Of a stretch of 64,000 bases of DNA, positions 29,042 through 60,093 are shown in pieces (within the stretch, counting starts at the first letter, position 1; each line of letters opens with the position of its first letter). The stretch is from an uncultured Mycoplasma sp. (lineage in GTDB: Bacteria > Bacillota_I > Bacilli_A > RF39 > UBA660), in NCBI GenBank assembly GCA_946554525.1, contig CAMNSE010000003.1:28683-92682 (forward strand), given 5' to 3'. The translations under genes and the position numbers were made by a program. The notes beneath the pieces are model-generated. The model worked only from the letters and a program-made list of their open reading frames with translations. It ran no database searches and had not been told where the DNA came from.

Positions 29042-29070
29042 TTGATTTAGATAAAGAAATATGGTAATAT
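29042..29070 (+). promoter_or_regulatory. Putative sigma-A promoter of module 1
   Basis: TTGATT, 17 nt spacer, TGG-TAATAT (extended -10). Confidence 0.45.
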
Positions 29071-29094
29071 TTTATTATAGAGGATATGGTAGAA

Positions 29095-29862
29095 ATGAAA
29101 TATATAAAGTGTTGTTTTTTAGCTTTTGCTTTATTTTTAATTAATGTGAACTCTGTTTTTGGAGAATGTAGTACAGAAGAGATGAATAAATTAAATAGCT
29201 TAGCAGTTAATGTAAATGTTGATAAGGAAGAAATGATTGGAGTTTTAGATAAAGGAGAATATAGTCCTCCTGATGGTTTAACCAAAGAAGAAGCCGAAAA
29301 TTATGTTGCTACTTATTCTTTTTTTCGAATTTATATTCGAAATATAACTGAAGATTTATATATTAAAGTATATAATCATGTCACCGAAGAAACAAATACT
29401 TATACTTATCAAGATAGCGAAGATGGAACTATTTATTTTGATCGTAAGTATATTAGAAATCTTGGAGAATACACAATCACAATTTATAGTTCAGATAAGA
29501 CGGGATGTGCGGATATAAAACTAAGGTCGATTCCTGTTACAACACCTTGGTTTAATGAATATAGTACATTAAATTTATGTAGTGGAGCTGAAGAGTTTTA
29601 TTTATGCCATAGATTTTTAACTGTGGAAAATGTTGATTTCAGTAAATTCACTGAATTAGTAACAAAATATAAAAATGGTAAAGTAAATAAAGAAGGAGAA
29701 GAAATAGAAGAGACGCCAGAAAAAAAGAAAGATTCTTGGGAAGAGTTTTATAAGAAATATAAAGTCTTTATTATATCTGGTTTAATAGTTTTAGTAATAG
29801 GTGGGGTAAGTACTGGCATTGTGAAAAAGAAGAATAGGAGTAAAAAGAATGCAAAAGAATAA
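29095..29862 (+). CDS. Module 1 gene A: type-I membrane protein (signal peptide, 4 conserved Cys, C-terminal TM anchor)
   Basis: Signal peptide ...NSVFG/EC and C-terminal TM plus KKKNRSKKNAKE. Paralogue of 34275..35021. Its 3' end overlaps the next gene by 14 nt. Confidence 0.75.
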   Translation: MKYIKCCFLAFALFLINVNSVFGECSTEEMNKLNSLAVNVNVDKEEMIGVLDKGEYSPPDGLTKEEAENYVATYSFFRIYIRNITEDLYIKVYNHVTEETNTYTYQDSEDGTIYFDRKYIRNLGEYTITIYSSDKTGCADIKLRSIPVTTPWFNEYSTLNLCSGAEEFYLCHRFLTVENVDFSKFTELVTKYKNGKVNKEGEEIEETPEKKKDSWEEFYKKYKVFIISGLIVLVIGGVSTGIVKKKNRSKKNAKE

Positions 29863-32800
29863 GAAAGTAGTTTTGTTATGTATCACTTTATTTGTATCTC
29901 TATTTAGCTTTAATAATTTTGTTAGTGCCTCTCAAACAAAAGAAACAAAAGAGAGTGGTGTAATTGTAGCTGATAATGAAAAACTTGAAAAAGCCACTAA
30001 AATTAATCAAACTCATACAGATTATAATCTTCACTATTATGGAATGAATATATCTAAAAATGGCAATATTATAACTTCAGATCAAACATCTAATTATTTA
30101 TATGAGCACCATTATAATACTAATAAAACTAATGAAACAAAAAATATATTTTGCTTAGATGCCATAAAGAAAGGAACACAAGAATTATATGCTATTCGTT
30201 TCTTAATGGATGCTGAAAATCATGATTCAGTTAGTGCATATGATGCTGCTATTATGAGTGTTCTTACCGCTGAGGCTACATATACTCACAAAAGTATTGC
30301 AATTAGAGCTATATCATTTTTATGGAATTATAATAAAACAGAAGCTGGATATAATCTTTCACAAGATGTAAAAGATTTAGTTGAGGCTTATAGTGGTCAG
30401 GTGTTTAAATGGATTAATGAAGATCAAGATATACAAGGCCTTTATTTAGAACTATATAAAAAAATAGATAAAACAAGAGATAAAGAATTGCCAAATGTTA
30501 ATATTTCAAATGGTGATATTTATGATTTTGATGGTAATAAAATAGCAAATAATGGCTATCATTTTGATTATAATAAAAATGTAGATGGAATAAGTGAAAA
30601 TAATACAATTATACCAGCCAGAAATTTATTTGCATGGGCTTTAAGAGATGCCCTAAATTATTTGAATAGTAAAGAAAAAGCAAATGTAAAAGAGGGAGTT
30701 ACTTCTTCAAGTGTTGTGAATGTTGAAAAACAAGGAGAGCAAGATTTAGTGTCAGGGGTTATTACACATAATTTTGTACTTAAAGAATTTACAAACGATG
30801 ATAAAGCTTCTTTTATGATTAGTAATTTAAAATATAAGTATACATATAAAGGAGTAGAGTCTGGTGTTCCTGTTGTTGATAGTATTACTATTAAAAATGG
30901 AAGTAATACTACAAAGTTTACAAAAGAGAATTATAATGGAAGTTTTTTAAATGTTAATTTATTAGATAGCAGTAAATTTAATATTCCAGCACTTGATTAT
31001 TCTAAAGAAATTACAATTAGTGTTGGTGTTAAAATCGCAGGATATAAAGCAGTTGAAGGTGCAACTCCAACTAAAGAGACGCTTAAATGTTCTAATGGAA
31101 CGCTAGAATATCAATTCGATTATACATGGCAAGATAGTTCATTGAAAGCTTTTAATAAGTTTGATAATTATGTAGGAATTGTTTGGTATGGAACTTTAGC
31201 TGGTGGAGAGGCTACAGACACAGGTAACCAACGGTTTATAAGTGTAGAAACAAATGCCAATGCTAGTTCTAGTTCACCTAATTCTAATTCTAACAGTAAT
31301 AGAGCTAAAGGTTCTTATACATTTGATTTAGGATGTGATAGTTGTAATACTTTAATTTCGAAATGTAATGGAAATGATAGTGAGGCATGTTCTATGTTAG
31401 CCGAAAGAAGCGATTGTGGATGTGAAGCTTATCAAACTTTATGTAATAAAGGCGACGATGCTATGTGTACTAAATTAGATGAAGATCCAGCTTGCTTACC
31501 AGCTACATGTGGAACAGAAGTCGTAGGAAACTTTCAATGTTGTGATTTAGAAGATAATATTTTATTAGTAGAAACAAAAAATAAAGAAATAAATATAAAT
31601 GGACCTCAAAACGTAGTTAGTTGTTTTGTAAATCAAGTTGATAGCCGTCGTACATCAGGAACAGATGAAGGCATTATAAATGATGAAGCGGGGAATAGCT
31701 ATGTTATGCTAAATAATCGTTATTGTACTGTATCATGTAAAGAAGATTATGTTTTATCAATGCCAAGCAGTAAAAAAGTAAATGCCAGTGGATACTTTAC
31801 ATTTGATATGTCTATTAAAGGTACAAAATCTTGTTATACTAACACCATAGATAAAAATGAAACTTTTATGGATGATGTAAGAGATGCTGAGGCTGCGGTT
31901 AAAGAGGCTTCTGATGTTTATAATGCAGTTATACTTATTAGAAATGCTGCTAAAAGTAGTGAATTTTCTAAAACAAGTGAAACACATACTGGGAGTACCG
32001 ATTATAGTTACAGTTGCACGAAAACAAGAATAGTAACGGGTACAGATTGCTCTGATAGAAGCGACTGTTATCGCAAATGTAAAAATAGTCCTAATCAAAC
32101 TGAATGCGGAGATGCGTGCGATGAAATAAAATGTAAACCAACAACCACTACCGAAACCTATACTGGTACCTGTGATGATGGAACATGTTCAAATACTCCT
32201 ACATCAGGCACTGGATACTCATTTGCTGCATATGGAGGAACATATTATTATGGTGTTAAAAGTATAAGTGGGCCAAATAATCATGGTAGTAGTTCAACAA
32301 GTAGCTCTTGTACTTGGTCTAAAAATTATTATACTACTCCAGCTTTATCTTATAGTAATACTTTCAATAAAAAAAGTTATAATAGGACTTCTAGCTATAC
32401 ACTTACAAGTGCTGAGTCTTATGATGATATTGTATCTGATGCATATAACGTATTAATTGCAGCTAATGAAAGACTAGAAAATATTATAAATGATTATGAA
32501 AAGTGTAGTACATTTACTAATAAATATGAGTATAAACCAGTTATAAATTACAGCTATTATGTTGATAAGGTAAAAACAATAAAAGGAGACATGGGACTTG
32601 TAGATTCTAATTCTAATAAAAAAGATGGTGAAAATGCAGAAGAATGGTATTGTACAACTTCGCTTACTAATGGATATGGACCTGGTAATTGTCGTGGTAT
32701 AAATAATGAATCAACTAGTATGCCAACACGTACAATTAGAGTATTTAAGTGTTCAATTACTTCTAATGATCCTACTTGTATAAATCAAGATGTAGAAATA

Positions 32801-33748
32801 CCGGCTGCTAAGTATGTCTCTAAAATATCTACAGTAAATGCAAGTTATGAGCCAATAAATGACAGATATAATTATTTACCATCTGGTATTGTTGGAGGAA
32901 AAAATGAATATCCTGGATCTTCAATTTTAGCTGGGAACCGTTTATCAGTAGATTTGAATTCTGGCAAAGAAATAAAACAATATGATATTTCAATTAGCAA
33001 TTTAGGGGAATTTTATGATTCTGATTCTGATTCTAAAAAACTTGGGCGCCTAATAGGAGACGATAATGCTGCTTTAAAAGAAAATGAACTACTAAATATA
33101 AACAATAACAATCAAGCTACTTATCATTGCAGTTACTTAGTTAATATGGGTAATATAAAAGAAGGCGACTTAGAATGTGTATTTGATGGATGCGGTGAAC
33201 CGTGCAAATTTGAGTGTGTAGGGTCTGGATGTGAAGATCATTGTCCTGGAGGAAATTGCGATTTTGATTGTTTAGGTAGTGGATGCATTTATAGTAAAGA
33301 AGATGGTCTTTATGTATACGAAAAAGAAATATCTTTAAATAATTTGTTCCCAGTGGGAACCGATTCTTATAACTGGAGTAGTAGTAATCAAAAAGCTAAA
33401 GATACTGTAGCAGAAATTCAAGAAAAAGCCGAGAATGTATATGCTGAAGATCCAATTTTAAAAGTAACTATTGATGGTAGCGCTGCAGCCAAAATAAAAG
33501 CATATAATAAAGAACACCCAAGTTATTCTGATGGCTCTATGTATTTTAGAGATATAGGTGATTATGAAAAAATTGCTGGATATAGTCAATTTATTGATGA
33601 GCTAATTAAAGGAACATATGGCGTGGATATTGATAGTAATAGTGAAGTTTTAACAAAGAGAAATACTAATAATCCAACTCAAAATAATTATTTTAGCATA
33701 TGGGGAAAGTATAGAGGCCAATCAATGCTTGGGCCTTCATGGAAGTAG
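29849..33748 (+). CDS. Module 1 gene B: 1299-aa secreted cysteine-rich giant protein
   Basis: Sec signal peptide (…FVSA/SQ), uninterrupted 3.9-kb ORF, RBS AGGAG. Aligns along its whole length with 35011..38700. No recognisable wall or membrane anchor at the C-terminus. Confidence 0.8.
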   Translation: MQKNKKVVLLCITLFVSLFSFNNFVSASQTKETKESGVIVADNEKLEKATKINQTHTDYNLHYYGMNISKNGNIITSDQTSNYLYEHHYNTNKTNETKNIFCLDAIKKGTQELYAIRFLMDAENHDSVSAYDAAIMSVLTAEATYTHKSIAIRAISFLWNYNKTEAGYNLSQDVKDLVEAYSGQVFKWINEDQDIQGLYLELYKKIDKTRDKELPNVNISNGDIYDFDGNKIANNGYHFDYNKNVDGISENNTIIPARNLFAWALRDALNYLNSKEKANVKEGVTSSSVVNVEKQGEQDLVSGVITHNFVLKEFTNDDKASFMISNLKYKYTYKGVESGVPVVDSITIKNGSNTTKFTKENYNGSFLNVNLLDSSKFNIPALDYSKEITISVGVKIAGYKAVEGATPTKETLKCSNGTLEYQFDYTWQDSSLKAFNKFDNYVGIVWYGTLAGGEATDTGNQRFISVETNANASSSSPNSNSNSNRAKGSYTFDLGCDSCNTLISKCNGNDSEACSMLAERSDCGCEAYQTLCNKGDDAMCTKLDEDPACLPATCGTEVVGNFQCCDLEDNILLVETKNKEININGPQNVVSCFVNQVDSRRTSGTDEGIINDEAGNSYVMLNNRYCTVSCKEDYVLSMPSSKKVNASGYFTFDMSIKGTKSCYTNTIDKNETFMDDVRDAEAAVKEASDVYNAVILIRNAAKSSEFSKTSETHTGSTDYSYSCTKTRIVTGTDCSDRSDCYRKCKNSPNQTECGDACDEIKCKPTTTTETYTGTCDDGTCSNTPTSGTGYSFAAYGGTYYYGVKSISGPNNHGSSSTSSSCTWSKNYYTTPALSYSNTFNKKSYNRTSSYTLTSAESYDDIVSDAYNVLIAANERLENIINDYEKCSTFTNKYEYKPVINYSYYVDKVKTIKGDMGLVDSNSNKKDGENAEEWYCTTSLTNGYGPGNCRGINNESTSMPTRTIRVFKCSITSNDPTCINQDVEIPAAKYVSKISTVNASYEPINDRYNYLPSGIVGGKNEYPGSSILAGNRLSVDLNSGKEIKQYDISISNLGEFYDSDSDSKKLGRLIGDDNAALKENELLNINNNNQATYHCSYLVNMGNIKEGDLECVFDGCGEPCKFECVGSGCEDHCPGGNCDFDCLGSGCIYSKEDGLYVYEKEISLNNLFPVGTDSYNWSSSNQKAKDTVAEIQEKAENVYAEDPILKVTIDGSAAAKIKAYNKEHPSYSDGSMYFRDIGDYEKIAGYSQFIDELIKGTYGVDIDSNSEVLTKRNTNNPTQNNYFSIWGKYRGQSMLGPSWK

Positions 33749-33763
33749 AAAAGGAGAGATTAT

Positions 33764-34165
33764 ATGAGCCAATCTTATTGGGGATATTGGTTAGTGTTAT
33801 TTGGCGTGGGAATTGTAGGCTTAATGATTTCTGTCCAAAATTTAACAACTACTAATACACAAGATTATTATAGCTTAAAAGAAGTAACAGAATCTGCGAT
33901 GCTAGAAGCTATAGACTATGGATACTATAGAGAATATAATGAGCTAAAAATTAATAAAGAAAAATTTATGGAAGTGCTTATTAGAAAAGTAGCAGAAGAC
34001 ATGAATTCTACCGACAAGTATGAAATAGCTTTTTATGGTATTTATGAAGCTCCACCAAAAGTTAGTGTAGAAATTAAAAGTATGAGTGGAACACGATTTG
34101 TTACAGATAGCGGGTATGATACTGTTAACCGCGTAGATGCAATTTTAAAGCAATATGAAGAATAA
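33764..34165 (+). CDS. Module 1 gene C: 133-aa protein with N-terminal hydrophobic helix (pseudopilin-like topology)
   Basis: MSQSYWGYWLVLFGVGIVGLMISV... RBS AAGGAGAG. About two-thirds identical by eye to 38702..39112. Confidence 0.7.
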   Translation: MSQSYWGYWLVLFGVGIVGLMISVQNLTTTNTQDYYSLKEVTESAMLEAIDYGYYREYNELKINKEKFMEVLIRKVAEDMNSTDKYEIAFYGIYEAPPKVSVEIKSMSGTRFVTDSGYDTVNRVDAILKQYEE

Positions 34166-34167
34166 TT

Positions 34168-34207
34168 AAAAAACAAGCAAAAAATAATAAAAAATGCTTG
34201 TTTTTTC
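34168..34207 (+). terminator. Terminator separating module 1 from module 2
   Basis: AAAAACAAGCA...TGCTTGTTTTT stem with an A-rich loop, followed by Ts. Confidence 0.6.
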
Positions 34208-34220
34208 TTATGTAAAATGC

Positions 34221-34249
34221 TTGAAAAAGTATTGTATACATGCTATAAT
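34221..34249 (+). promoter_or_regulatory. Sigma-A promoter of module 2 plus Tad-like core
   Basis: TTGAAA, 17 nt spacer, TGC-TATAAT (extended -10). Confidence 0.6.
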
Positions 34250-34274
34250 TTTGAATATGAGGTGGTTGAGAACT

Positions 34275-35021
34275 ATGAGGAAAATGAGCACATTTGCTTT
34301 AGCTATTTTGACATTCTTATTTGGGACTAATATTGTTAGCGCTCTTTGTGAAGCATCTGAAATGAATAGACTAAATACTTTAGCAGTTAATGTAAGAAGT
34401 GATTTTGAAGAAATAGAAGAAGTAATGGATCCAGATGAGTATGACTTGCCAGATGGTACAGAGACAGAAGAACTGCCAGAATTAAAAAGATTGTTTTTTA
34501 AAGTAAATATTTACAATGTTACTGATGAGCTATATGTTTTAGTTCATAATAATGTAACTAATGAAACTAAAAAGTTTACTTATCAGGATAGTAAAGATGG
34601 AGTAATAAGTTTTATTTGGGATGACTTATATTCGATTGTAAACTATACAATCACTGTATATAGTTCTGATAAAACAAATTGCGTAGACACAAAATTACAT
34701 ACTTTATATCAAACAACACCAAGATTTAATGAATATAGTAGTTTGGCTGCTTGTGATAATGCTGATGACTTCTATTTATGTCATAAGTATATTACTGTTG
34801 AAACAACAGACTTTAGTAACTTTATAGCCAAAGTTGACGAATACAAAAAGGGCAAAGTTAACGAAAAAGGTGAAGAAATAGTCTCACCTAATAAAAAGAA
34901 TGAAAATTTTATAAGTGAATATAAAAATATAATTATTGCTGTTAGTGCAGCAGTAGTTATAGTTGGGGTTATATCTGTGGTAGTAGTAATAATCAGGAGG
35001 AGTGGTAAAAATGAAAAATAG
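34275..35021 (+). CDS. Module 2 gene A: type-I membrane protein, paralogue of 29095..29862
   Basis: Signal peptide ...NIVSA/LCEASEMNRLN matches ...ECSTEEMNKLN of the paralogue. The four Cys are conserved. C-terminal TM plus RRSGKNEK. Start at ATG 34275 after GAGGTGG. Confidence 0.75.
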   Translation: MRKMSTFALAILTFLFGTNIVSALCEASEMNRLNTLAVNVRSDFEEIEEVMDPDEYDLPDGTETEELPELKRLFFKVNIYNVTDELYVLVHNNVTNETKKFTYQDSKDGVISFIWDDLYSIVNYTITVYSSDKTNCVDTKLHTLYQTTPRFNEYSSLAACDNADDFYLCHKYITVETTDFSNFIAKVDEYKKGKVNEKGEEIVSPNKKNENFISEYKNIIIAVSAAVVIVGVISVVVVIIRRSGKNEK

Positions 35022-38000
35022 TTTAAAAAAAGTAAACTTATTATTAATAGCCTTAATGGTATTATTTAGTGGATTAAAATCAGTTTATGCTACAAGAGAA
35101 GAAAGAATAGGTGCTGATAATCAAAAAGTAATAGCTGATAGTGAGAGTACTAAAGGTGTTACTTATACTACTAAAGCAAAGATATCTAGTGCTAGTAGAA
35201 GTTCATATTATAAATTTGGTCTATCTTGGACTGGGACTGACGGAAAAAGTTATAGTAACAATAACATTTCTTATGCAACGTATTATGATAATTATCGTAT
35301 AAAGAAGACATCATTTTACTTATATTGTTTAGATCCAGCAAACTGGTCTGAAAGTGGACTTTATGCAAAACGCTTTTTATTGTCTCCATCAAATAGTTTA
35401 GGAGTTAATTCTTATGATACAGCTCTTATGTATATCCTAACAAGCAATGAATCTTATGCGGCCAAAAGTATTGCTATAAGATCAATTAGTGCTTTATGGG
35501 GATATGAATATGGCAATGATGATTTAGCAACTGATATAGGAAAAAATTCATACCGTTTATATGCTGCATATTTTGGACAAGCATTAAAATGGCTTGAAAA
35601 AGAAGGAATAAGTTCATCTTATAATAGGCTTTTAAATGCCGGTGTGGGTCTTAAATCTATTGATTCCTTAAAGAGTGGTAGTCTTGAAGTTAATAATGTC
35701 ACTTATAGTTATAAATTATATGGCTTTAGTGATTATAGTGGAGGAAATACTGTATCTAAAGCGGAAGAATTATTTAAGGGTGCTTTATCAAAAGCAGCGG
35801 ATTATGCTGAAGCTAATAAAAATGGCTTTGCAAATGTTGGAGAAAATAAAACTCTTGCTCCAGTTAAAACACCTGAAGTCGTAACAAGCGATACTGAAAT
35901 GATTTCATATAGAAAAACTTATGATTTCACTTTAAATAAGTTTACAAATGATGGTAAAGCATTTTTCTCAATTGATAGTTTAAAATTTGATAAAGGTGCA
36001 GCTGCTGTTGGAGCTAGATTTGAGCCTTATGTTATTGCAGTTTCTGTTAATGATAATGTGATTTATGATAGAGCAAAAAATATTGGAACTCTTAATTATA
36101 AAGATAACATTTTAGCTTATCAATCAGTAAAAGATTTAAATATTGATGTTAGTAAAGATGTTAAGATTTCAGTAACAATTGAAATACTAGCATATTATAA
36201 TGTAAGTGGAAATGAAAATCATATTAGTTGTGCAACACAACCAATGGATTATACACTAGCTTATAGTTATAATGATTCTTCTATCCCTAATTCATACAGC
36301 AATTATCTAGGAATAGTTTGGCAAGGTAAGAAAATTTCTTCAAGTGGGAAACCAGTTATATCTCAAAGATTTATTTCTGTTGAAAAATTAAATGATGAAA
36401 ATAGTAATGATGGAAAAAAGACAGTAGAAATGAAGGATAGTGTTAGTTTAATTGAATGTGGAAGCTGTTCAACATTAGCTAGCCTTTGTGAGAAAACTGG
36501 TAATCGCTTTAGTGCTGAATGTACTAAGCTTAAAGAAGCTAATTGTGGATGTACTTATTTAAATACTTTCTGTAGTCTTGGAGATAATGACGCATGTAAT
36601 AAGTACGAAAAAGAGTGTGCATCATCTTGTGAAACTACCGTTTCTAACGAATTCCAATGCTGTGATGAGGCTAATGATATATTACTAATTTCTCAAGAAA
36701 ATAAAAAAGATATTGAAATTAATGGACCATCAAATACAGTTGCATGTTTTGTTAATAAAATAGATGAAATTAAAAATAACAAGAATGATAACACAGGATA
36801 TACTGGTGTTAGTGTAGAAGATGAAGCACATAATAGCTATACGATGCTATCTAATAAATATTGTGCAGTTTCATGTAAAGAAGATTATGCGATGAATCTT
36901 CCATCTTCTAAACTTGTTAATGCCGGAAGATATTTCACATTTAGAATGGGTATTGAAGGCAAAAAAACATGTTATACAAGTACAATTGATAAAAGCTCAT
37001 ATAATACTGATATAAAAAATGCTCAAATAGAACTTATTAATGCTTATAATGATTATGTTATATATAAAGCAGCTCAAGATAAAGCAAACGCTAATGGTAT
37101 TACTTCATCTACACTTGATTGTGCAAGCGGATGCGGAACTCGTACTGGATATAGTTTATCTATTTCTATTTTAGGATTTGAACCTGTTGTAAATAACGAT
37201 GGTACTGTTTCAAGAACAACTAAACAATTAAATAAAACATTTAGCTCAAATGGAACTACGGGAAGTTCACACTATAGTTGTACCACAGCAGCTAATGGCA
37301 AACAAAGCTGTGAATGGGTATGCGATTCTTCTTGTAAAGACGGTAGTAGTAGTGAGATAAAAACTGAGGTTTCACAAGGATTAGAAAAAGCTAAAACTAG
37401 ACTTGCAAATGCTAAAAAAAGTTATGAAAGTATTATTAGTGATTTTAATTCATGTACAAACTTTACAACTGATATAAATTTTGATCCTGAAGTTACTTAT
37501 GATTATCAAGAATTCTATAATAGTAAAGCTGTTATGGAGGAATATAATAAGAAGACTGGTACTACATATCAAGGAGAAAATTATGATGAAGAATGGTATT
37601 GTGATGGTACTGTAAGTGGGTCAAAATATAATTGTAGTATTAGTCCTTATAAGACTCAAACAGGCCATTTAGTAACTAGAGTTTATACAGTATGTACTGA
37701 GGCAGGTTGTAGTAACGATACTAAATATATTTCAACAGCAAACTATGCTAAGAAAACAGAGACTGTAAGTGCAAGCTATAGACCAACAACACTTTACTAT
37801 AATCGTTATCCAAATGGTACAATTTCTACTAATGAAAGTGATAATAATGATGTGGCGCTTGAAAATAGACTTCCTGTATCACTTAATACAAAACGAGGAA
37901 TTTATGAATATAATATCAATATTACTGATTTAGGAGAGTTCTATAAAGAAGAATCTTTAGGAAGACTTGCTGGATCTTCTAATAGAGCAGTTCTTGCTCA

Positions 38001-38700
38001 AAAGAAATTTAATGATCTTACAAATTATATTAATAACAGTATTAATTATAATTGTTCTTACTTAGTTAATATGGGTAAGATTGATGAAGGTATGTTAAAA
38101 TGTGACTTTGGCTCTTGTAAAGATGGCCTTTGTGACTTTGAATGCGTTGGCCCTGGATGTGGACAATATTGCGATAATGGACATTGCGACTATAATTGTA
38201 TAGGAGCTGGATGTATTTATAATGAAGGCGATGGAACAAGCTTATTTGAAAAACAAGTTTCTTTAAATAATTTATTCCCAAATGGTACTGATTCTTATAA
38301 TTGGAATGAAGAAAAAAATAGTAAAGCTGATCAAACTATCGAAATGATTGAAGGAAAAGCAAATACCATTTATGATGAAAAACCAATTTTAAGTATTACC
38401 ATTACTCCAACAACAGCTAAAGCAATAAAAAAATATAATAAAGATAATAAAAATGTTTATACAAATGATACCTTAACTTGTAAAGATATTAATAAACATG
38501 AAAATATTGCTTGCTATAGTAATGTATTATCACAATTAATTGAAGGAACATTTAATGGTATTGATAAAAACGCAATAAATTATGTTGATGAGGCACGTAA
38601 TCCTGAAAATACAAATAGTGGATATTTCACAACATGGAGTAGTGTTTCAGAAAATAATATGTTAGGACCATCTTGGAAAATAGGAAAGGAGCAAAAATAA
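35011..38700 (+). CDS. Module 2 gene B: about 1229-aa secreted cysteine-rich giant protein
   Basis: Sec signal peptide (…SVYA/TR) and AGGAGG RBS. The start overlaps the end of gene A. Cys clusters are conserved with 29849..33748. Confidence 0.8.
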   Translation: MKNSLKKVNLLLIALMVLFSGLKSVYATREERIGADNQKVIADSESTKGVTYTTKAKISSASRSSYYKFGLSWTGTDGKSYSNNNISYATYYDNYRIKKTSFYLYCLDPANWSESGLYAKRFLLSPSNSLGVNSYDTALMYILTSNESYAAKSIAIRSISALWGYEYGNDDLATDIGKNSYRLYAAYFGQALKWLEKEGISSSYNRLLNAGVGLKSIDSLKSGSLEVNNVTYSYKLYGFSDYSGGNTVSKAEELFKGALSKAADYAEANKNGFANVGENKTLAPVKTPEVVTSDTEMISYRKTYDFTLNKFTNDGKAFFSIDSLKFDKGAAAVGARFEPYVIAVSVNDNVIYDRAKNIGTLNYKDNILAYQSVKDLNIDVSKDVKISVTIEILAYYNVSGNENHISCATQPMDYTLAYSYNDSSIPNSYSNYLGIVWQGKKISSSGKPVISQRFISVEKLNDENSNDGKKTVEMKDSVSLIECGSCSTLASLCEKTGNRFSAECTKLKEANCGCTYLNTFCSLGDNDACNKYEKECASSCETTVSNEFQCCDEANDILLISQENKKDIEINGPSNTVACFVNKIDEIKNNKNDNTGYTGVSVEDEAHNSYTMLSNKYCAVSCKEDYAMNLPSSKLVNAGRYFTFRMGIEGKKTCYTSTIDKSSYNTDIKNAQIELINAYNDYVIYKAAQDKANANGITSSTLDCASGCGTRTGYSLSISILGFEPVVNNDGTVSRTTKQLNKTFSSNGTTGSSHYSCTTAANGKQSCEWVCDSSCKDGSSSEIKTEVSQGLEKAKTRLANAKKSYESIISDFNSCTNFTTDINFDPEVTYDYQEFYNSKAVMEEYNKKTGTTYQGENYDEEWYCDGTVSGSKYNCSISPYKTQTGHLVTRVYTVCTEAGCSNDTKYISTANYAKKTETVSASYRPTTLYYNRYPNGTISTNESDNNDVALENRLPVSLNTKRGIYEYNINITDLGEFYKEESLGRLAGSSNRAVLAQKKFNDLTNYINNSINYNCSYLVNMGKIDEGMLKCDFGSCKDGLCDFECVGPGCGQYCDNGHCDYNCIGAGCIYNEGDGTSLFEKQVSLNNLFPNGTDSYNWNEEKNSKADQTIEMIEGKANTIYDEKPILSITITPTTAKAIKKYNKDNKNVYTNDTLTCKDINKHENIACYSNVLSQLIEGTFNGIDKNAINYVDEARNPENTNSGYFTTWSSVSENNMLGPSWKIGKEQK

Positions 38701-38701
38701 T

Positions 38702-39112
38702 ATGAGTCATTCTTATTGGGGCTATTGGCTAATAACTTTTGGAATTGCTATTGTAGGACTTATGGTTAGTGTTCAAGGTATTACAACCACTACAACTCAA
38801 GATTATTATAGTTTGAAAGAAATCACTGAATCAGCTATGTTAGAATCAGTTGACTATGGATATTATAGAGACTATAATGAAGTTAAGATTAATGGTGAAA
38901 AGTTTATGGAAGTATTTATTAGAATGCTTAGTGAAACTATAAGTAATGAAACTTATGAAGTAAACTTTTATGATTTATATGAAGCTCCACCAAAGGTGAG
39001 CGTAGAGATTAAAAGTAATAGTGGAACAAACTTTATCTCAAGTGGCAGTTATGATAGTGTAAATCGCGTGGATGCAATTTTACAAACATATGCTGAGGAA
39101 GTAGAAAGTTAA
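38702..39112 (+). CDS. Module 2 gene C: 136-aa protein with N-terminal hydrophobic helix
   Basis: MSHSYWGYWLITFGIAIVGLMVSV... Starts 1 nt after the giant gene's stop. Confidence 0.7.
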   Translation: MSHSYWGYWLITFGIAIVGLMVSVQGITTTTTQDYYSLKEITESAMLESVDYGYYRDYNEVKINGEKFMEVFIRMLSETISNETYEVNFYDLYEAPPKVSVEIKSNSGTNFISSGSYDSVNRVDAILQTYAEEVES

Positions 39113-39127
39113 TAGGAGGAATAAAAA

Positions 39128-39925
39128 ATGGGAAATATCGGAGCAACATTCAAACGGTTTTTATCTAATAAAAATACTGTTACGATACTAGGAGTGCTAG
39201 CAGGTTTAGCTGTTTTAATCGTTGGATATAATTGGCGAGTAAATCATGCGGTTGAAACTATTAATATACCGTATGCTAAAAAAACTATTACAGCAACAGG
39301 ACCTATTGCTGCTGATAATATTGGTTTTGTTAAGGTTCTTAATGAAACAGTAAAAAATAATAAAAATATTATTACGGATCGAAATAGTTTAATTAGTAAT
39401 AATACTAATTATTGTGTAACATTTGGAACTAGTGTTCCTGAAGGTGCATTTTTCTACAGAGAGCAAGTAGTTAATTGTAAAACAATTCCAAATGATCCTT
39501 TTAAAAATATGCCTGATGGTTATAAACCAGTAGAGTTATCCGTTGATATTCATTCAACATATGGTAATTCAATGTACCCTGGAGATTATATTGATTTATA
39601 TGTTAAAATGCAATCAAGTGATAATAAAGTAATTTTTGGAAAGTTTATATCTAAGATACAAATTGCTGATGTAAGAGATAGTCGTGGTAATAGTGTATTC
39701 TTAACTAGTACTGCTTCTGAACCTTCAACGCTTCTTTTCACAGTAAAGGAAGAATACTTCTTATTACTTAGAAAAGCAATTTATAGTGGTAAAGTAACAC
39801 TTGAACCAGTGCCAGGTAATGCATCATATACTAGTAATCCTGGAGATATGGCTGTAGAAAGTGAATACTTAAGACAACAAATTTTAAATTATACTTCAGA
39901 TATCCCTGATGAAGTAGTTCAATAA
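39128..39925 (+). CDS. cpaB: CpaB/RcpC-like pilus-assembly protein (N-terminal TM, SAF-like and beta-clip-like regions)
   Basis: TM helix VTILGVLAGLAVLIVGY. The segment YKPVELSVDIHSTYGNSMYPGDYIDLYV resembles the CpaB motif (...G.RA.S..V......G.I.PGD.VD...). Position is directly upstream of the TadA-like ATPase. Confidence 0.55.
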   Translation: MGNIGATFKRFLSNKNTVTILGVLAGLAVLIVGYNWRVNHAVETINIPYAKKTITATGPIAADNIGFVKVLNETVKNNKNIITDRNSLISNNTNYCVTFGTSVPEGAFFYREQVVNCKTIPNDPFKNMPDGYKPVELSVDIHSTYGNSMYPGDYIDLYVKMQSSDNKVIFGKFISKIQIADVRDSRGNSVFLTSTASEPSTLLFTVKEEYFLLLRKAIYSGKVTLEPVPGNASYTSNPGDMAVESEYLRQQILNYTSDIPDEVVQ

Positions 39926-39964
39926 ATAATTTATTAAAAGAATAAAGTAAAAGGAGGTGTTATA

Positions 39965-41053
39965 ATGAATGATGCCATATTTTCGCAAATTGATTTTGGC
40001 CCATTAAAAGAATTTATCGATATTGATGATATTACCGATATTTCTTATAGTAATGGAGGACAAGTTTGGTTAAAGTCATTAACTAAAGGTGTCTATCAAG
40101 TTGAGAGACCCGAAATTAATAATGCGCTAGTAGAAAAGTTAGCATTCCAATGTTCTAACGTAATGGGTAAAACATTCAATATGGCACATCCTTTTTTAGA
40201 TGCAGAATCTACAGAGTTACGTCTAAATTTTATTCATGAATCAATAGCTACTAATGGGGTAGCGCTGGTTATTCGTAAAACGCCAGCTAAGATTCGACTA
40301 AATAGGGAAAAGTTATTAAATGAAGAATATGTAAGTGCGGATTTATTAGATTTTCTTCTTAATTGTGTCCAAGGACATGCCAATATTATTGTAAGTGGAG
40401 AAACTGGTTCAGGTAAAACAGAGTTAGTAAAGTATTTAGCTAGTACAACAAAAGAAAATGAAAAAATCATTACAATAGAAGATACGCTTGAGTTACATTT
40501 AGACCGGATATTTCCACATCGTGATATTGTTGCAATGAAGACAAATAATATTGCAAGCTATTCTGATGTTTTAGTTACTTGTATGAGACAGAATCCAATA
40601 TGGATATTACTATCAGAAGTTCGTAGTGCAGAAGCAGTTATGGCAGTACGTAACTCGATATCTTCTGGGCACCATATTATATCTACTATCCACTCAGATA
40701 AAGCAGCATTAATACCAATGCGTATGTATAGTTTGATTGAATCCAATATTGATGTTGAACAATTCTTAACAACAATTCATAGATATGTACAAATTGGTAT
40801 TTATGTAAAGGGATATATGAGCGAGAAATTAGGTAGGTTTCAAAGAGAAATTATGGAAATTGTGGAGTTTTATGTTGATAAAGACAATAAACCTCAAGTA
40901 AATACAATTTATCAAAAAACATTAGATGGAAAATTTACATTAAATAATCCGACACAGAATTTAAGAAATTATTTAGCAATACAAGGAGTTATTTTACCAG
41001 AGGATTTATTTCATTTAAATGATAAAAAAAATGAAGAAATAGAAACTTTATAG
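39965..41053 (+). CDS. tadA: TadA/CpaF/VirB11-family secretion ATPase
   Basis: Walker A GETGSGKTE, IITIEDTLEL (Asp box), RQNPIWILLSEVR (Walker B region), GHHIISTIHS (His box). Confidence 0.8.
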   Translation: MNDAIFSQIDFGPLKEFIDIDDITDISYSNGGQVWLKSLTKGVYQVERPEINNALVEKLAFQCSNVMGKTFNMAHPFLDAESTELRLNFIHESIATNGVALVIRKTPAKIRLNREKLLNEEYVSADLLDFLLNCVQGHANIIVSGETGSGKTELVKYLASTTKENEKIITIEDTLELHLDRIFPHRDIVAMKTNNIASYSDVLVTCMRQNPIWILLSEVRSAEAVMAVRNSISSGHHIISTIHSDKAALIPMRMYSLIESNIDVEQFLTTIHRYVQIGIYVKGYMSEKLGRFQREIMEIVEFYVDKDNKPQVNTIYQKTLDGKFTLNNPTQNLRNYLAIQGVILPEDLFHLNDKKNEEIETL

Positions 41054-41067
41054 AAGGAGGAAACTTT

Positions 41068-41973
41068 ATGGGTATGCTTGAATACTTTATACTCGCATTA
41101 ATTGCAATATTTATTATTATTTACCGCAGAAATGATGGAAAAGACTCTTTTTATAAGTTTGTCAAAAAGCAATTTAACGGTGTTTATGAAAAATATGCGC
41201 CTTATAGTTATAAAACAATAAGTGAAAAAATGAAAGAATTAAAACAAGAATATACACCCAAAGATTATGCTATGCAAGTTGTAGTTATGGGTGGTATGGC
41301 CGGTGTAATTTCTTTCCTTTATTTCTATAATATTATTATAACTGCTATATATGCTGGAATTGCTGTTTTGTTTGTACCTTATTTGTCTTATCTTAGAAGT
41401 AAAAGATTATATAGTGAATATTTATTTGAACAGATTCAAATTTATACAACAAATGTTATTATGGAATTTAATACTACTCAAAGTTTTGTTAAATCATTAG
41501 AAGGAGTAAGAGATTCTGGAATTTTAGAGGATCCTGTACTTGCGGATATTAAAGTGATGATAAATATGTCATATCAAAATGGAACAATTGATGAATCTAT
41601 TGAATATTTCAATGAAAAATATCCTTATTATATGGTTAAAAATATGCATCAACTATTTTTACAAATTACTAAAGAAGGTGCTAAAGATTCTGGAGAAGCG
41701 CTTGAAAATATGAGTATGGATATAGATGCATTAGTAGAAGGCGTTTATCGCGATCAAATGGATCGTAAACAATTTCATAGCAAGTTCTTAACATTTGGGC
41801 TAGCTTTATTTTTCTTAGTTGCAGTTATGCAAGTGTTACTTGGTCGTAAAAGCTATCTTAAACTACTAAATTTATGGTATGTTCAAATTATATTACATGT
41901 GATTATTATTATAAACTGTTATTTTTTAATGACAGGAGAAAAGTATTATAATGATGATGTGGGGGTAGAATAA
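41068..41973 (+). CDS. tadB: TadB-like platform protein (T2SS-F-like topology)
   Basis: N-terminal TM, TM pair, about 130-aa soluble helical domain, two C-terminal TMs. Immediately follows the ATPase. Confidence 0.55.
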   Translation: MGMLEYFILALIAIFIIIYRRNDGKDSFYKFVKKQFNGVYEKYAPYSYKTISEKMKELKQEYTPKDYAMQVVVMGGMAGVISFLYFYNIIITAIYAGIAVLFVPYLSYLRSKRLYSEYLFEQIQIYTTNVIMEFNTTQSFVKSLEGVRDSGILEDPVLADIKVMINMSYQNGTIDESIEYFNEKYPYYMVKNMHQLFLQITKEGAKDSGEALENMSMDIDALVEGVYRDQMDRKQFHSKFLTFGLALFFLVAVMQVLLGRKSYLKLLNLWYVQIILHVIIIINCYFLMTGEKYYNDDVGVE

Positions 41974-42761
41974 TGCAAATAGAAATGGTTATTATTGCAT
42001 TTATTATCTTCTATATTTTTACGAAAAGTGGCAAAATCAGCATTTCGAAATTAATTGCAGATAATGAAATGTATTTAAGAAAATTAAAAGAAAATGATTA
42101 TGATTTTTATGTAAAAGCAAAATATGGTGATAGTATAAATCCAGATTTACTCTTTAATAAAAGAATTCAAAATGCTATTATTGTTACATCAGTTGCTTTT
42201 ATACTTATGATATCTAAGATGTCATATGTTAATGCAATTATATGTATTGTTATTGGATTTGCGTTCTTTAAATTGGATTATTTAAATTTAAAGAAGTACT
42301 ATAAAGCTCATTTACATGAAATTGATACTATGCTGCCATATTATTTAAAAGGATTAGAGATTTTAATTCAGCATTATACGGTTCCCGTAGCAATAGGTAA
42401 ATCTTTAGAGGATGCACCTGAGATTTTTAAAGATGGACTAAGACAATTAATCAATGAAATTAATGCTGGTAATGATACAATAGAACCTTATATGGAATTT
42501 GCAAGAAAGTATCCAGTAAGAGACTCTATGCGTATGATGAGACTTTTATATCGTTTAAGTTTAGGAAGACAAGAAAGAAAACAAGAGCAATTAATTGCAT
42601 TTTCTAAAACGATTTCTAGTCTACAACAAAAAGCTAGAGATACAAAATATAAAAATCGATTAGATAAAATGGAAAGTAAAACAATGAGTATGTTAATTAC
42701 AACCGGAGTAGGGGTTATGATACTTCTAGTATTCGCAGTTTTACTTATGATGCAGGTATAG
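41973..42761 (+). CDS. tadC: TadC-like platform protein
   Basis: Same TM / soluble-domain / TM architecture as TadB. Start overlaps the tadB-like stop (TAATG). Confidence 0.55.
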   Translation: MQIEMVIIAFIIFYIFTKSGKISISKLIADNEMYLRKLKENDYDFYVKAKYGDSINPDLLFNKRIQNAIIVTSVAFILMISKMSYVNAIICIVIGFAFFKLDYLNLKKYYKAHLHEIDTMLPYYLKGLEILIQHYTVPVAIGKSLEDAPEIFKDGLRQLINEINAGNDTIEPYMEFARKYPVRDSMRMMRLLYRLSLGRQERKQEQLIAFSKTISSLQQKARDTKYKNRLDKMESKTMSMLITTGVGVMILLVFAVLLMMQV

Positions 42762-42791
42762 ACATTATTTTACACATAATAATGGAAAAAC

Positions 42792-42820
42792 TTGACAATA
42801 AATAAAAGTTAAGATAAAAT
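42792..42820 (+). promoter_or_regulatory. Near-consensus sigma-A promoter of the 121-aa gene
   Basis: TTGACA, 17 nt spacer, TAAAAT. Confidence 0.6.
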
Positions 42821-42852
42821 TAATATATATAGAAGAAAGCGAGGAATTTTAT

Positions 42853-43218
42853 ATGTTAATAATGGCACCTTCAGTATGTTCGACTTTAGCTCCAATTTGG
42901 CAAATTATAGGTTGGGTACTATGGGTATTTAAAATCGTTATTCCAATAGTTATTATTATTTTTGGTATGATTGATTTAGGAAAAGCTGTAGTAGCTAGTA
43001 AAGATGATGAAATTAAAAAATCAATTAAATCTTTAGCAATGCGTGCTGTTGCCGGAATAGTAATATTCTTTATTCCAACATTAGTAGGAGCAATATTCGG
43101 TTTAGTTAGTGAATTTGCTAGTGATGAAATGCAAGAAGAATATGGAAAATGTAAAGCTTGTATTGTAAACCCAGGCAAGGATGCTTGCAAGGGTCATGTT
43201 GAAGCAGCTAATAGCTAA
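42853..43218 (+). CDS. Small two-TM protein with Cys-rich C-terminal tail (VirB2/TrbC-like topology; candidate filament subunit)
   Basis: Two long hydrophobic helices separated by a charged loop (KAVVASKDDEIKKSIK), with tail GKCKACIVNPGKDACKG. Has its own RBS (GCGAGGA), promoter and terminator. Confidence 0.6.
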   Translation: MLIMAPSVCSTLAPIWQIIGWVLWVFKIVIPIVIIIFGMIDLGKAVVASKDDEIKKSIKSLAMRAVAGIVIFFIPTLVGAIFGLVSEFASDEMQEEYGKCKACIVNPGKDACKGHVEAANS

Positions 43219-43250
43219 AAAATTCCAAAAAATTGGAATTTTTTTATTTT
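43217..43250 (+). terminator. Rho-independent terminator closing the locus
   Basis: AATTCC-loop-GGAATT followed by T7. Confidence 0.7.
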
Positions 43251-43305: not shown

Positions 43306-43381
43306 GCTCGTTTAGCTCAGTCGGTAGAGCGCACGGCTGTTAACCGTTAGGTCGTAGGTTCGAGTCCTACAACGAGCGCCA
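43306..43381 (+). tRNA. tRNA-Asn (anticodon GTT)
   Basis: Acceptor GCTCGTT/AACGAGC, D arm GCTC..GAGC, anticodon loop CTGTTAA, T arm GTAGG-TTCGAGT-CCTAC, encoded CCA. Confidence 0.88.
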
Positions 43382-50135: not shown

Positions 50136-50232
50136 AAAATAATTGATTAATATCAAAATATATTATATACTTATAAGTATAGCAGAGTATTTATAAGATA
50201 AATGATTTGTAAGTATGTTAAGGAGTAGAGGT

Positions 50233-51891: not shown

Positions 51892-51973
51892 GAGTAAGAA
51901 ATATCTTATTCTTTTTTCTTTGGTTCGACATAATTAGTATATAGTTTAAGATATAATTATATTGGTGGAAATA

Positions 51974-60007: not shown

Positions 60008-60093
60008 ATAACCACCTATTCTAAAAACATTATACACTAATAGTAGATTTTAAACAAGAACAAAGTTTTTTTAATATCTAATATATAAAAAAA

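Follow-up and report, generated by a model that had tools for sequence, protein, structure and literature searches.

A 14-kb block of genes, all on the + strand, lies in the 64,000-nucleotide stretch of DNA analysed here (the window, from contig CAMNSE010000003.1 of an uncultured Mycoplasma sp., GCA_946554525.1), bounded by a gene for a DcuC-type transporter (27580-28995) and by tRNA-Asn (43306-43381). The block joins two copies of a three-gene module, designated A-B-C and A′-B′-C′, to genes for a Tad-like ATPase and its membrane partners, and the composition, relatives and possible role of this locus are the subject of this report. A preliminary description of the DNA had set out the genes with their overlaps and gaps, and a check of the open reading frames (ORFs) found them located as claimed. 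The genes and associated features are as follows.

29095-29862 (longest ORF from 29086), +: gene A, membrane protein of type I carrying a Sec signal peptide; matches no Pfam or NCBIfam family
29849-33748, +: gene B, 1299 aa; no Pfam or NCBIfam family
33764-34165, +: gene C, 133 aa; Pfam PF17424 (DUF5411), E = 3.9e-51
34172-34207, +: weak hairpin resembling a terminator, between the two modules (stem of 8 bp, A-rich loop of 15 nt, short T run; read by eye)
34221-34249, +: sigma-70-type promoter-like site before A′ (TTGAAA-17-TATAAT with TG, 11/12; a consensus match only)
34275-35021, +: gene A′, paralogue of A
35002/35011-38700, +: gene B′, 1232/1229 aa, paralogue of B
38702-39112, +: gene C′, 136 aa, paralogue of C; DUF5411, Pfam E = 1.4e-48
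39128-39925, +: CpaB-like gene, CpaB/RcpC-like bitopic protein of SAF type; TIGR03177, E = 1.3e-4
39965-41053, +: ATPase gene, 362 aa; T2SSE, E = 5e-27
41068-41973, +: TM1, polytopic membrane protein, TadB/T2SSF-like by transitive homology
41973-42761, +: TM2, second polytopic membrane protein, in the TadC position; no Pfam family
42792-42820, +: promoter-like site before S121 (TTGACA-17-TAAAAT, 11/12; a consensus match only)
42853-43218, +: S121, 121 aa, hairpin of two transmembrane helices, VirB2/T4SS_pilin-like; PF18895, E = 5e-4

The 3′ end of A overlaps the start of B by 14 nt in the window and by 4 nt in two relatives for which gene calls exist, and from C′ through the CpaB-like gene, the ATPase gene and TM1 to TM2 the successive spacings are 15, 39, 14 and -1 nt. 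The longest ORF for A′ opens at 34194; the promoter-like site and a ribosome-binding site favour the start at 34275. Module 1 had been credited with a promoter and terminator of its own, and these two elements are weaker than claimed: promoter-like sites are no commoner across the region than in shuffled sequence (98 observed, 93.8 in shuffles), and a terminator scan made no call for the hairpin after C. That module 1 is transcribed apart from module 2 is nevertheless plausible. The separate promoter proposed for S121 coincides with a good 11/12 site; what the preliminary description missed is the likeness of the encoded protein to VirB2-type pilins.

The paired genes of the two modules had been judged by eye to be about half (A/A′), 35-45% (B/B′) and two-thirds (C/C′) identical, and BLASTP gives 47% for A/A′, 33% over the N-terminal 720 aa and 40% over the C-terminal 450 aa for B/B′, and 70% for C/C′. 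Because a close relative, L167, has the identical layout with two full modules, the duplication is real and not an artefact of assembly. A single module is the usual state among related loci, and extra copies of module genes occur in others: L035 and L051 read A-B-A-B-C, L031 has C-C, and L069 has an additional A and C upstream of a complete A-B-C module. Module 2 is probably the original copy, since it lies slightly nearer to the single-copy orthologues than module 1 does (33% identity for B′ against 29% for B; 70% for C′ against 65% for C).

Relatives of C occur in metagenome-assembled genomes named uncultured Bacilli, 'Mycoplasma sp. CAG:776', 'Tenericutes' and Candidatus Onthocola, mostly from gut samples, and a close one is present in 236 species-representative genomes. 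All window proteins were compared by tblastn with 82 fetched genome and metagenome loci, comprising a near group (L001-L044) and a far group (L045-L082). The order A-B-C-CpaB-like-ATPase-TM1-TM2-S121 is retained essentially everywhere in these 82 loci, and it recurs in every longer locus among a further 80 where the machine lies within reach, for more than 100 loci in all; co-occurrence of A-B-C with the ATPase and platform genes, which the preliminary description had proposed to survey, was thus found in strict order wherever the loci are sufficiently long. The genes for lysyl-tRNA synthetase (LysRS) and DcuC stand upstream in many near-group loci as they do in the window. This synteny, together with a guanine-plus-cytosine (GC) content judged native (29.7% for the locus, 27.7% for the window), indicates that the locus is chromosomal and vertically inherited. 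An origin from a phage or mobile element was considered and dropped in view of the native GC, the chromosomal synteny and the lack of an integrase.

The Tad-like core and its plasmid relatives

The ATPase has intact Walker A, Asp box, Walker B and His box motifs and is built without the N-terminal extension of CpaF. Its best matches in the Protein Data Bank (PDB) are CpaF (E = 4.8e-17), FlaI (1.6e-14) and VirB11 (3e-14), ahead of PilT, PilB and GspE, and its NCBIfam matches (VirB11, conjugation-associated TadA and TrbB) all fall far under the family (equivalog) cutoffs. Judged by these comparisons, the protein is a divergent member of the CpaF/TadA-FlaI-VirB11 clade. Direct matches of the CpaB-like protein are weak (besides TIGR03177, RcpC at E = 0.04), and its profile found nothing significant among PDB sequences. 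The profile of its family aligns by hhalign with a Priestia plasmid protein at a probability of 99.5% (E = 4.5e-22), and this Priestia protein in turn carries the Pfam SAF domain above cutoff along with an RcpC match at E = 1.7e-4, from which the CpaB-like protein is taken to be a true SAF/RcpC homologue. With the ATPase and CpaB-like matches, the designation of the core as Tad-like stands. Several far-group loci have two tandem CpaB-like genes in place of one, 37-45% identical to that of the window (L047-L049, L054, L059, L060, L062, L063, L076, L085, L128 and L160).

The two polytopic proteins are likely TadB and TadC counterparts, an assignment based on position, size, topology and transitive homology. 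TM1 aligns by hhalign (94.5%, E = 8e-8) with a Priestia protein whose NCBI annotation reads 'type II secretion system F family' and which itself reaches PF00482 at E = 3.4e-5, with 24.2 bits against a cutoff of 25.2; TM2 aligns with the next Priestia gene, in the same position (96.6%, E = 5e-10). TM1 belongs to a family of at least 8000 clusters at 90% identity, largely from gut samples and annotated as 'hypothetical' in all of the matches listed, and a profile search for homologues returned, among the matches listed, close unannotated relatives and no bridge to T2SSF.

S121 covers the full profile of PF18895 (T4SS_pilin, VirB2-like) with 20.5 bits against a cutoff of 26.6, and 18 of its 22 orthologues match the same profile at E ≤ 0.01, the best at 1.3e-5. 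The protein has conserved Cys residues near both termini and a basic loop between its two helices, and in far-group loci S121 paralogues stand in rows of 2-3.

The likeness to the Tad/Flp (type IVc) systems, such as Cpa of Caulobacter and Tad of Aggregatibacter, thus consists of a CpaF-clade ATPase followed by two polytopic proteins of ~260-300 aa, together with a CpaB/RcpC-type SAF protein; far-clade relatives add Flp-like pilins, which are short, along with pseudopilin-like proteins of larger size and one protein that is TadZ-like. Unlike these systems, the window has no Flp pilin, G/XXXXEY site, TadV or TadZ, its ATPase is short, and TM1 and TM2 reach no T2SSF model directly. The window locus moreover adds DUF5411, the VirB2-like two-helix protein and the A and giant B modules, which occur in no described Tad locus. 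Tad loci of Gram-positive bacteria have been described, e.g. in Bifidobacterium and Bulleidia (PMC12786226). SpoIIIA was considered as an identity for the locus and dropped, as the ATPase matches no SpoIIIAA-type family and no Spore_III_AA or SpoIIIA family appears among the Pfam and NCBIfam matches of the locus proteins at E ≤ 0.1.

The preliminary description knew of no system combining these elements, and in this it was mistaken. In Clostridia (Roseburia, Ruminococcus and Eubacterium), Miller et al. (2022, PMC9523054) predicted a 'secretion-related' operon in which genes for CpaF, PilC/GspF and DUF5411 accompany one for an internalin-like protein. It resembles the window in uniting DUF5411, a CpaF-type ATPase, a PilC/GspF-type protein and a large invasin-like surface protein in gut Bacillota (PMC9523054); compared by description, it differs in that the large protein is internalin-like and not a Cys-rich B, and that no A-type partner, duplication or VirB2-like gene is described. 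The same order is also found on Priestia, Enterococcus and pLS20-type plasmids, with a similar one on pXO1. With the ATPase as query, tblastn against plasmids returned 1955 records, none reaching 60% identity; 'CpaF/VirB11 family' genes of Bacillota plasmids matched best. In Priestia koreensis (NZ_CP061869) the genes run SLH protein - Ig-like 993-aa protein - DUF5411 - SAF - ParA-like - CpaF/VirB11 - T2SSF family - transmembrane protein - DUF4320, a module collinear with that of the window and for which homology is demonstrated for C, the CpaB-like protein, the ATPase, TM1 and TM2; its first gene is a prepilin peptidase candidate by eye only and has no Pfam match. Enterococcus faecium pZB18 has a SpaA-like 1209-aa protein - small proteins - CpaF/VirB11 - two transmembrane proteins - small proteins - TrbC/VirB2 - VirD4, with a weak DUF5411 counterpart (E = 0.006), and Bacillus anthracis pXO1 carries a similar, partly annotated block. 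These modules differ from the window's in lying on plasmids, in pZB18 beside VirD4 and transfer genes, and in having large proteins of other families, and their ATPases differ in length (~475-485 aa with an N-terminal extension) and are 29-34% identical to that of the window. Proteins of 47-50 aa with a single helix stand beside two of the plasmid 'VirB11' blocks (L084, 7960-8112, pZB18; L166, 9086-9399, pLS20-type, where the gene is duplicated) and, although annotated as hypothetical, are candidate Flp-type pilins.

Plasmid pLS20 offers a further parallel. Its genes 34-40 follow an order like that of the window: Tie (34), then 35 and 36 (the latter with an N-terminal transmembrane helix), the 'putative VirB11' 37, two transmembrane proteins 38 and 39, and a small protein 40 with an N-terminal transmembrane helix. 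Tie is a thioester adhesin that covalently attaches the donor to the recipient cell and is needed for efficient mating in liquid (PMC8557374). Unlike the window locus, the pLS20 block is embedded in a type IV secretion system (T4SS) operon, and the ATPase alone is clearly homologous (31%), genes 36, 38 and 39 giving weak collinear hhalign alignments with probabilities of 40%, 4.6% and 34%; nor is B a thioester-domain protein. Comparison of S121 with pLS20 gene 45 by hhalign returned nothing. Across all these loci the slot upstream of DUF5411 and the core is taken by a different protein: Ig-like in Priestia, SpaA-like in pZB18, Tie in pLS20, internalin-like in Roseburia, and B/B′ in the window. 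Gene order suggests a common theme, in which each lineage has a large surface protein of its own just upstream of DUF5411 and the Tad-like core; the window holds the chromosomal form of this arrangement in one clade of Bacilli, with a separate cargo family.

These plasmid relatives raise the possibility that the locus is a domesticated mating-contact module, derived from or exchanged with a plasmid block of adhesin and 'VirB11', and serves bacterial aggregation or contact exchange and not host adhesion. The nearest annotated plasmid relatives of the ATPase, the 'CpaF/VirB11 family' genes of Priestia, Enterococcus, pLS20-type and pXO1-type plasmids with the same or similar order, would fit such an origin, as would the resemblance of S121 to T4SS pilins and the TrbC/VirB2 gene a few genes after the ATPase on pZB18; the far-clade S121 arrays of 2-3 recall the VirB2-like pilins found in Patescibacteria (PMC12102498). 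However, VirB4, VirD4 and relaxase domains were found neither in the locus nor in the flanking ORFs scanned, no other transfer gene appeared among the scanned ORFs of the window, and the remaining window ORFs are housekeeping by eye. The locus is also chromosomal, syntenic across species and of native GC, its ATPase shares only 29-34% identity with those of the plasmids, and it resembles pLS20 only weakly in genes 36, 38 and 39. We therefore regard a mating-contact role as rather improbable.

Giant proteins, DUF5411 and the pilin-like genes

Protein A consists of a Sec signal peptide, an extracellular domain of ~150 aa with 4 invariant Cys residues, a Lys/Glu-rich linker, a C-terminal transmembrane helix and a basic tail, which confirms its earlier classification as a type-I membrane protein with 4 Cys. 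One far-group locus encodes a 514-aa protein (L045, 18168-19712) composed of an A-like N-terminal domain, an S121-like two-helix hairpin and a long Cys-rich tail, a fusion that hints that A and S121 act together.

B and B′ have predicted signal peptides for Sec export and contain 44 and 41 Cys residues, respectively, in line with the dozens first noted. Neither has an LPxTG motif (by regular expression) or a C-terminal transmembrane segment, as had been stated, and both terminate in GPSWK; anchoring of B as an LPXTG protein or lipoprotein was dropped. A word-indexed homologue search with B returned 5 proteins only, and an exhaustive HMMER search with residues 480-1299 against 1.84 billion representatives returned 215 clusters, nearly all of 1000-1400 aa. 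In an alignment of 43 sequences 33 columns are invariant, 15 of them Cys; in the C-terminal GPSWK the G and P are invariant and the W nearly so, and the motif may serve in docking or sorting. From these 43 sequences AlphaFold2 produced a model of B′ (mean predicted local distance difference test score, pLDDT, 74.8) that shows, starting at the N-terminus, a beta region, then a helical domain and a beta sandwich, a Cys-rich segment of helices and more beta structure, followed by two helices of 33-34 residues around a beta insertion, a beta-rich region, a low-confidence Cys-rich stretch and an alpha/beta C-terminal domain. Foldseek comparison of the model with PDB and BFVD gave no match better than E = 0.02. 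Together with the Pfam and NCBIfam searches, this agrees with the view that B falls outside the known adhesin families and folds.

One candidate family for B was examined and rejected. Within residues ~100-160 the Cys of [YF]CLD and the Arg of AIRA are both invariant, a pair reminiscent of the Cys/Gln motifs of thioester-domain (TED) adhesins except that the Arg stands at the site of the Gln. Pfam gave no TED match, the Arg replaces the Gln, and no TED structure was among the Foldseek matches.

The small protein C had been called mini-pilin-like, and it does have an N-terminal hydrophobic helix, which bears a conserved SYWGYWL motif; the family, now identified as DUF5411, is highly conserved and adds a small alpha/beta domain, and neither hhalign nor the model established a pilin nature. 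An AlphaFold2 model of moderate confidence (pLDDT 68.7) shows the N-terminal helix, three more helices and a three-stranded sheet, and the profile of C found nothing significant among PDB sequences. The N-terminus differs between groups, beginning MKE[ST]YWGY in the far group and MQSSYWGY in the near group, with MSQS (33764) and MSHS (38702) in the window. In many species C is C-terminally fused, via a Gly/Thr/Pro linker, to a Peptidase_M15 domain of the D-Ala-D-Ala peptidase type (483-495 aa; L003 6430-7917, L002 8369-9820, and other loci with a gap of ~1 kb between C and the CpaB-like gene), from which it follows that the globular part of C lies outside the membrane and that the apparatus is tied to peptidoglycan remodelling.

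The near and far groups also differ downstream of TM2. Far-group loci have five extra genes between TM2 and S121, coding for two proteins of 75-95 aa in which an invariant MKEATGELN leads into a hydrophobic helix of 20 residues and a tail that contains Cys (Flp-like, without the EY motif), two pseudopilin-like proteins of 150-180 aa beginning MREAIGGTW, and one protein of ~330 aa (320-350) with a degenerate P-loop in the TadZ position. These proteins have no Pfam or PDB match and are named by analogy; by hhalign the TadZ-like protein aligned with the Priestia ParA-like protein at the P-loop only, with 0.8% probability, and homology was confirmed neither there nor between the pseudopilin-like protein and its Priestia counterpart. 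In near-group loci, the window included, TM2 is followed directly by S121. The term 'minimal' given to the machine thus suits the window's clade and is lineage-specific, since far relatives carry the pilin-like, pseudopilin-like and TadZ-like genes.

A metagenome scan seeded with the pilin motif gave 476 loci, with the cluster mostly after TM2 where the flank sufficed. A few others are orphan clusters of Flp-like, pseudopilin-like and TadZ-like genes, in some cases with S121, that have no ATPase or TM1/TM2 in the 8-10 kb available upstream (L089, L106-L108, L110, L132, L134, L144), so that the pilin set and the machine appear to be unlinked in some genomes. In L126 and L129 the orphan cluster lies ~4 kb downstream of a LemA gene whose product is 66% identical to the LemA of the window, and the S121 copies of orphan clusters, where present, are far-group-like. 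Within the window, no Flp-type ORF or G/XXXXEY site was found and the intergenic gaps are too small, which, with the lack of an ORF or motif for TadZ and for an A24-type prepilin peptidase, confirms the absence of these three components from the window as first reported. One stretch of the source contig beyond the window was viewed for pilin and peptidase genes and held FemAB, Tex and genes of unknown type only. A second secretion ATPase is encoded at 58802-60037 (-; 411 aa; T2SSE E = 2.4e-124 over the whole profile), standing alone, as the next gene downstream has the opposite orientation; it might be part of a type IVa pilus or competence system whose other genes lie elsewhere, and such a system would be a possible source of a prepilin peptidase.

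The leader of C covaries with these genes: it reads MKE[ST]YWGY where genes of the MKEATGELN and MREAIGG types are in the locus and MQSSYWGY otherwise, and the far-group leader follows the same M-K/R-E-[AS]...G pattern as the pilin-like proteins there. This covariation suggests that C passes, or once passed, through the route by which the pilin-like proteins of the far group are processed and assembled.

The genes of the locus evolve at very different rates. Median amino-acid identities to the window over the near and far loci are given below, followed, where available, by the share of codons that differ from L167 with a change of amino acid.

ATPase: near 93%, far 79%; 1.4%
LysRS: near 84%, not found in far loci
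TM2: near 82%, far 67%
TM1: near 80%, far 69%; 6.0%
S121: near 73%, far 50%
C / C′: near 65-70%, far 53-54%; C 8.3%, C′ 5.1%
CpaB-like: near 55%, far 44%; 3.8%
DcuC: near 55%, not found in far loci; 7.6%
A / A′: near 40-41%, far 31%; A 18.0%, A′ 14.9%
B / B′: near 29-33%, far 24-26%; B 21.1%, B′ 15.5%

Synonymous-only codon differences between the window and L167 amount to 14-21% in most genes (28% in C, 21% in the ATPase). A and B thus diverge 10-15 times faster than the ATPase, B being the fastest gene of the locus, and the motor is by these figures under stronger constraint than an aminoacyl-tRNA synthetase, LysRS. All frames are intact in the window and, in L167, for every gene wholly on the contig, and full-length homologous matches occur in more than 40 near-clade loci. 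The loss of five far-clade genes from the locus and the rapid divergence of A and B could be taken as signs of a decaying remnant that builds nothing since the pilin, pseudopilin and TadZ genes went, and in which A and B are unconstrained. Against such decay stand the intact frames and the full-length matches, the ATPase with its 93% near-group identity against 84% for LysRS and its 1.4% of changing against 21% of synonymous-only codons, and the invariant columns of B with the G, P and W of GPSWK kept; we give this explanation almost no credence. The constrained ATPase, the intact frames and the conserved columns and C-terminus of B speak for a functional machine, and the pattern of rates fits such a machine with an exposed, diversifying cargo.

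Possible role of the locus

The reading that we favour, tentatively and at a little less than even chances, is that these genes specify an envelope machine, Tad-derived and type IVc-filament-like, for the display of adhesins through the wall, native to a clade of wall-bearing, spore-forming gut Bacilli. A hexameric ATPase of the CpaF/VirB11 clade would drive a platform of TM1 and TM2 with the CpaB/RcpC-type SAF protein, and this platform would extrude a short, membrane-rooted fibre or pseudopilus built from C/C′ and possibly from S121. The fibre would carry or push Sec-exported B/B′ through the thick wall and hold B at the surface as an adhesin, with A/A′ acting as its co-translated membrane partner and the M15 wall-peptidase fusions assisting passage through the wall. 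The two modules of the window would then provide two alternative or co-displayed adhesins. Gene content, the conserved order, the homologies and the rates are shown by the comparisons above; that a fibre is assembled, that C and S121 are its subunits, that B sits at the surface and acts there as an adhesin, and that A and B interact is what we infer. In favour of display count the strict linkage of the genes, the identity of the core proteins, the pilus-type genes kept by far relatives and the leader that C shares with them there, the M15 fusions of C, the large surface proteins that fill the slot upstream of DUF5411 elsewhere, the contrast in rates, and the Sec signal of B together with its overlap with A. 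PilY1/PilC-type tip proteins and the modular pilins of Streptococcus sanguinis are reportedly cases in which an adhesin of ~1000 aa is shown at a type IV filament by minor pilins; no similarity of B or B′ to PilY1/PilC-type proteins was detected by sequence (Pfam) or fold (Foldseek).

A number of results weigh against adhesin display by such a machine. TM1 and TM2 match nothing directly in Pfam, NCBIfam or PDB sequences, T2SSF included; a comparison by hhalign for paralogy of the TadB/TadC kind showed no similarity between the two, and neither has a tblastn match on plasmids. S121 stays under the Pfam threshold, and pilins of the VirB2 type are normally assembled by VirB4-type machines, none of which was found among the scanned window ORFs. 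The match of C to the pseudopilin-like family by hhalign is weak, with N-terminal residues 1-33 alone in register (E = 0.017, probability 2.8%), and Foldseek found neither a pilin nor any other significant match to the C model in PDB. Neither the window nor any near-clade locus inspected has genes in the locus for Flp-like pilins, pseudopilin-like proteins or TadZ, and the A24 peptidase motif (G-x-GD-x-K-type) occurs in no window ORF of at least 120 aa, nor was the family found among the Pfam-scanned ORFs. B is assigned a putative adhesive role from the place of its gene, its size, its signal peptide and the speed at which it changes. Filaments have not been seen, nor was any experimental study of the clade found.

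Some of the same observations would suit a secretion piston, in which C, perhaps with S121, expels Sec-exported B/B′ into the medium or onto another cell as a monoderm counterpart of the pseudopilus of type II secretion systems. B carries a Sec signal and lacks a recognisable anchor, the near clade has no long-filament pilin genes in the locus while its motor is still 93% conserved, the C-M15 fusions point to passage through peptidoglycan, and the related operon was classed as 'secretion-related' by Miller et al. (PMC9523054). Translational coupling of B to the membrane-anchored A is a better fit to retention, however, and the equivalent slot of pLS20 holds Tie, a covalent cell-attachment adhesin. 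Secretion by a piston therefore strikes us as unlikely, if well worth keeping in mind.

A bolder version of adhesin display can be drawn, although we think it doubtful. The locus might be a pilin-less hybrid of Tad and T4SS-pilin elements that has shed Flp pilins, pseudopilins, TadZ and perhaps the processing of prepilins, and whose motor works with DUF5411 and a VirB2-like protein alone to thread or present giant proteins of novel fold, knotted by disulfides or metal, through a Gram-positive wall; the plasmid 'VirB11' blocks would then be the same device and not energisers of a T4SS. Such a device, if real, would be near-essential to the lifestyle of genome-reduced gut Bacilli. A 2025 review describes Gram-positive T4SSs as lacking VirB11 (PMC12857230), and reading the unexplained plasmid block of 'VirB11' and membrane proteins (pLS20, pXO1, pZB18) as Tad-like adhesin presentation would resolve this discrepancy; the link to pLS20 is testable in the tractable B. 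subtilis/pLS20 system.

That the core belongs to the Tad/type IV filament superfamily, and that the DUF5411 module was flagged computationally in 2022 and occurs on plasmids, is already known; new is the chromosomal variant with its B cargo family and others that have no known relatives. The alternatives named at the outset of the work found no footing, as no orthology to SpoIIIA or a T4SS emerged among the ORFs scanned, no known adhesin family was found for B, and the modules and the core do occur together. Display of B by the Tad-derived machine would give a testable function to the DUF5411, TM1, TM2, S121, A and B families. The locus is probably the main exposed, fast-changing surface determinant of this clade (the 'Mycoplasma sp. 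CAG' and 'Tenericutes' metagenome-assembled genomes) and as such would bear on colonisation, recognition by immunoglobulin A and attack by phages. The B family, at 1200-1300 aa and with no relatives in sequence or fold, is a target for structural work.

Neighbouring genes and sporulation

Genes elsewhere in the window give some indication of the organism.

975-2219, -: FemAB
20540-22567: membrane GGDEF protein
23452-25074, -: sortase with a long N-terminal extension, 540 aa
49410-50135: Gpr-type germination protease
51962-52882: SpoIIP

With murG and murB also in the window, these peptidoglycan and sporulation genes point to a low-GC, wall-bearing member of the Bacillota with sporulation genes. 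They also bring up a further explanation of the locus, namely that the machine deposits the Cys-rich proteins during sporulation as parts of the spore surface or its appendages. Spore coats and endospore appendages characteristically contain extracellular proteins very rich in Cys, and to the Gpr-type protease and SpoIIP of the window can be added a Cse60 gene nearby in one relative. Coat proteins, however, are made in the mother-cell cytoplasm, whereas B carries a signal for Sec export; of the promoter-like sites, the best ones, which precede A′ and S121, are of the sigma-70/SigA type, the ATPase has no SpoIIIAA-type match, and related modules reside in plasmid conjugation operons. A link to sporulation is accordingly quite improbable in our estimation.

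Some minor observations concern the surroundings of the locus. The left flank of one relative contains, near its FemAB gene, two more genes for proteins of ~400 aa that have no Pfam family. Weak DUF6273 matches were found for the proteins at 50215-51891 and 12306-13538, and the N-terminus of the former, LTFAYFSVADKQ, may resemble SipW-dependent signal peptides of the TasA/camelysin type.

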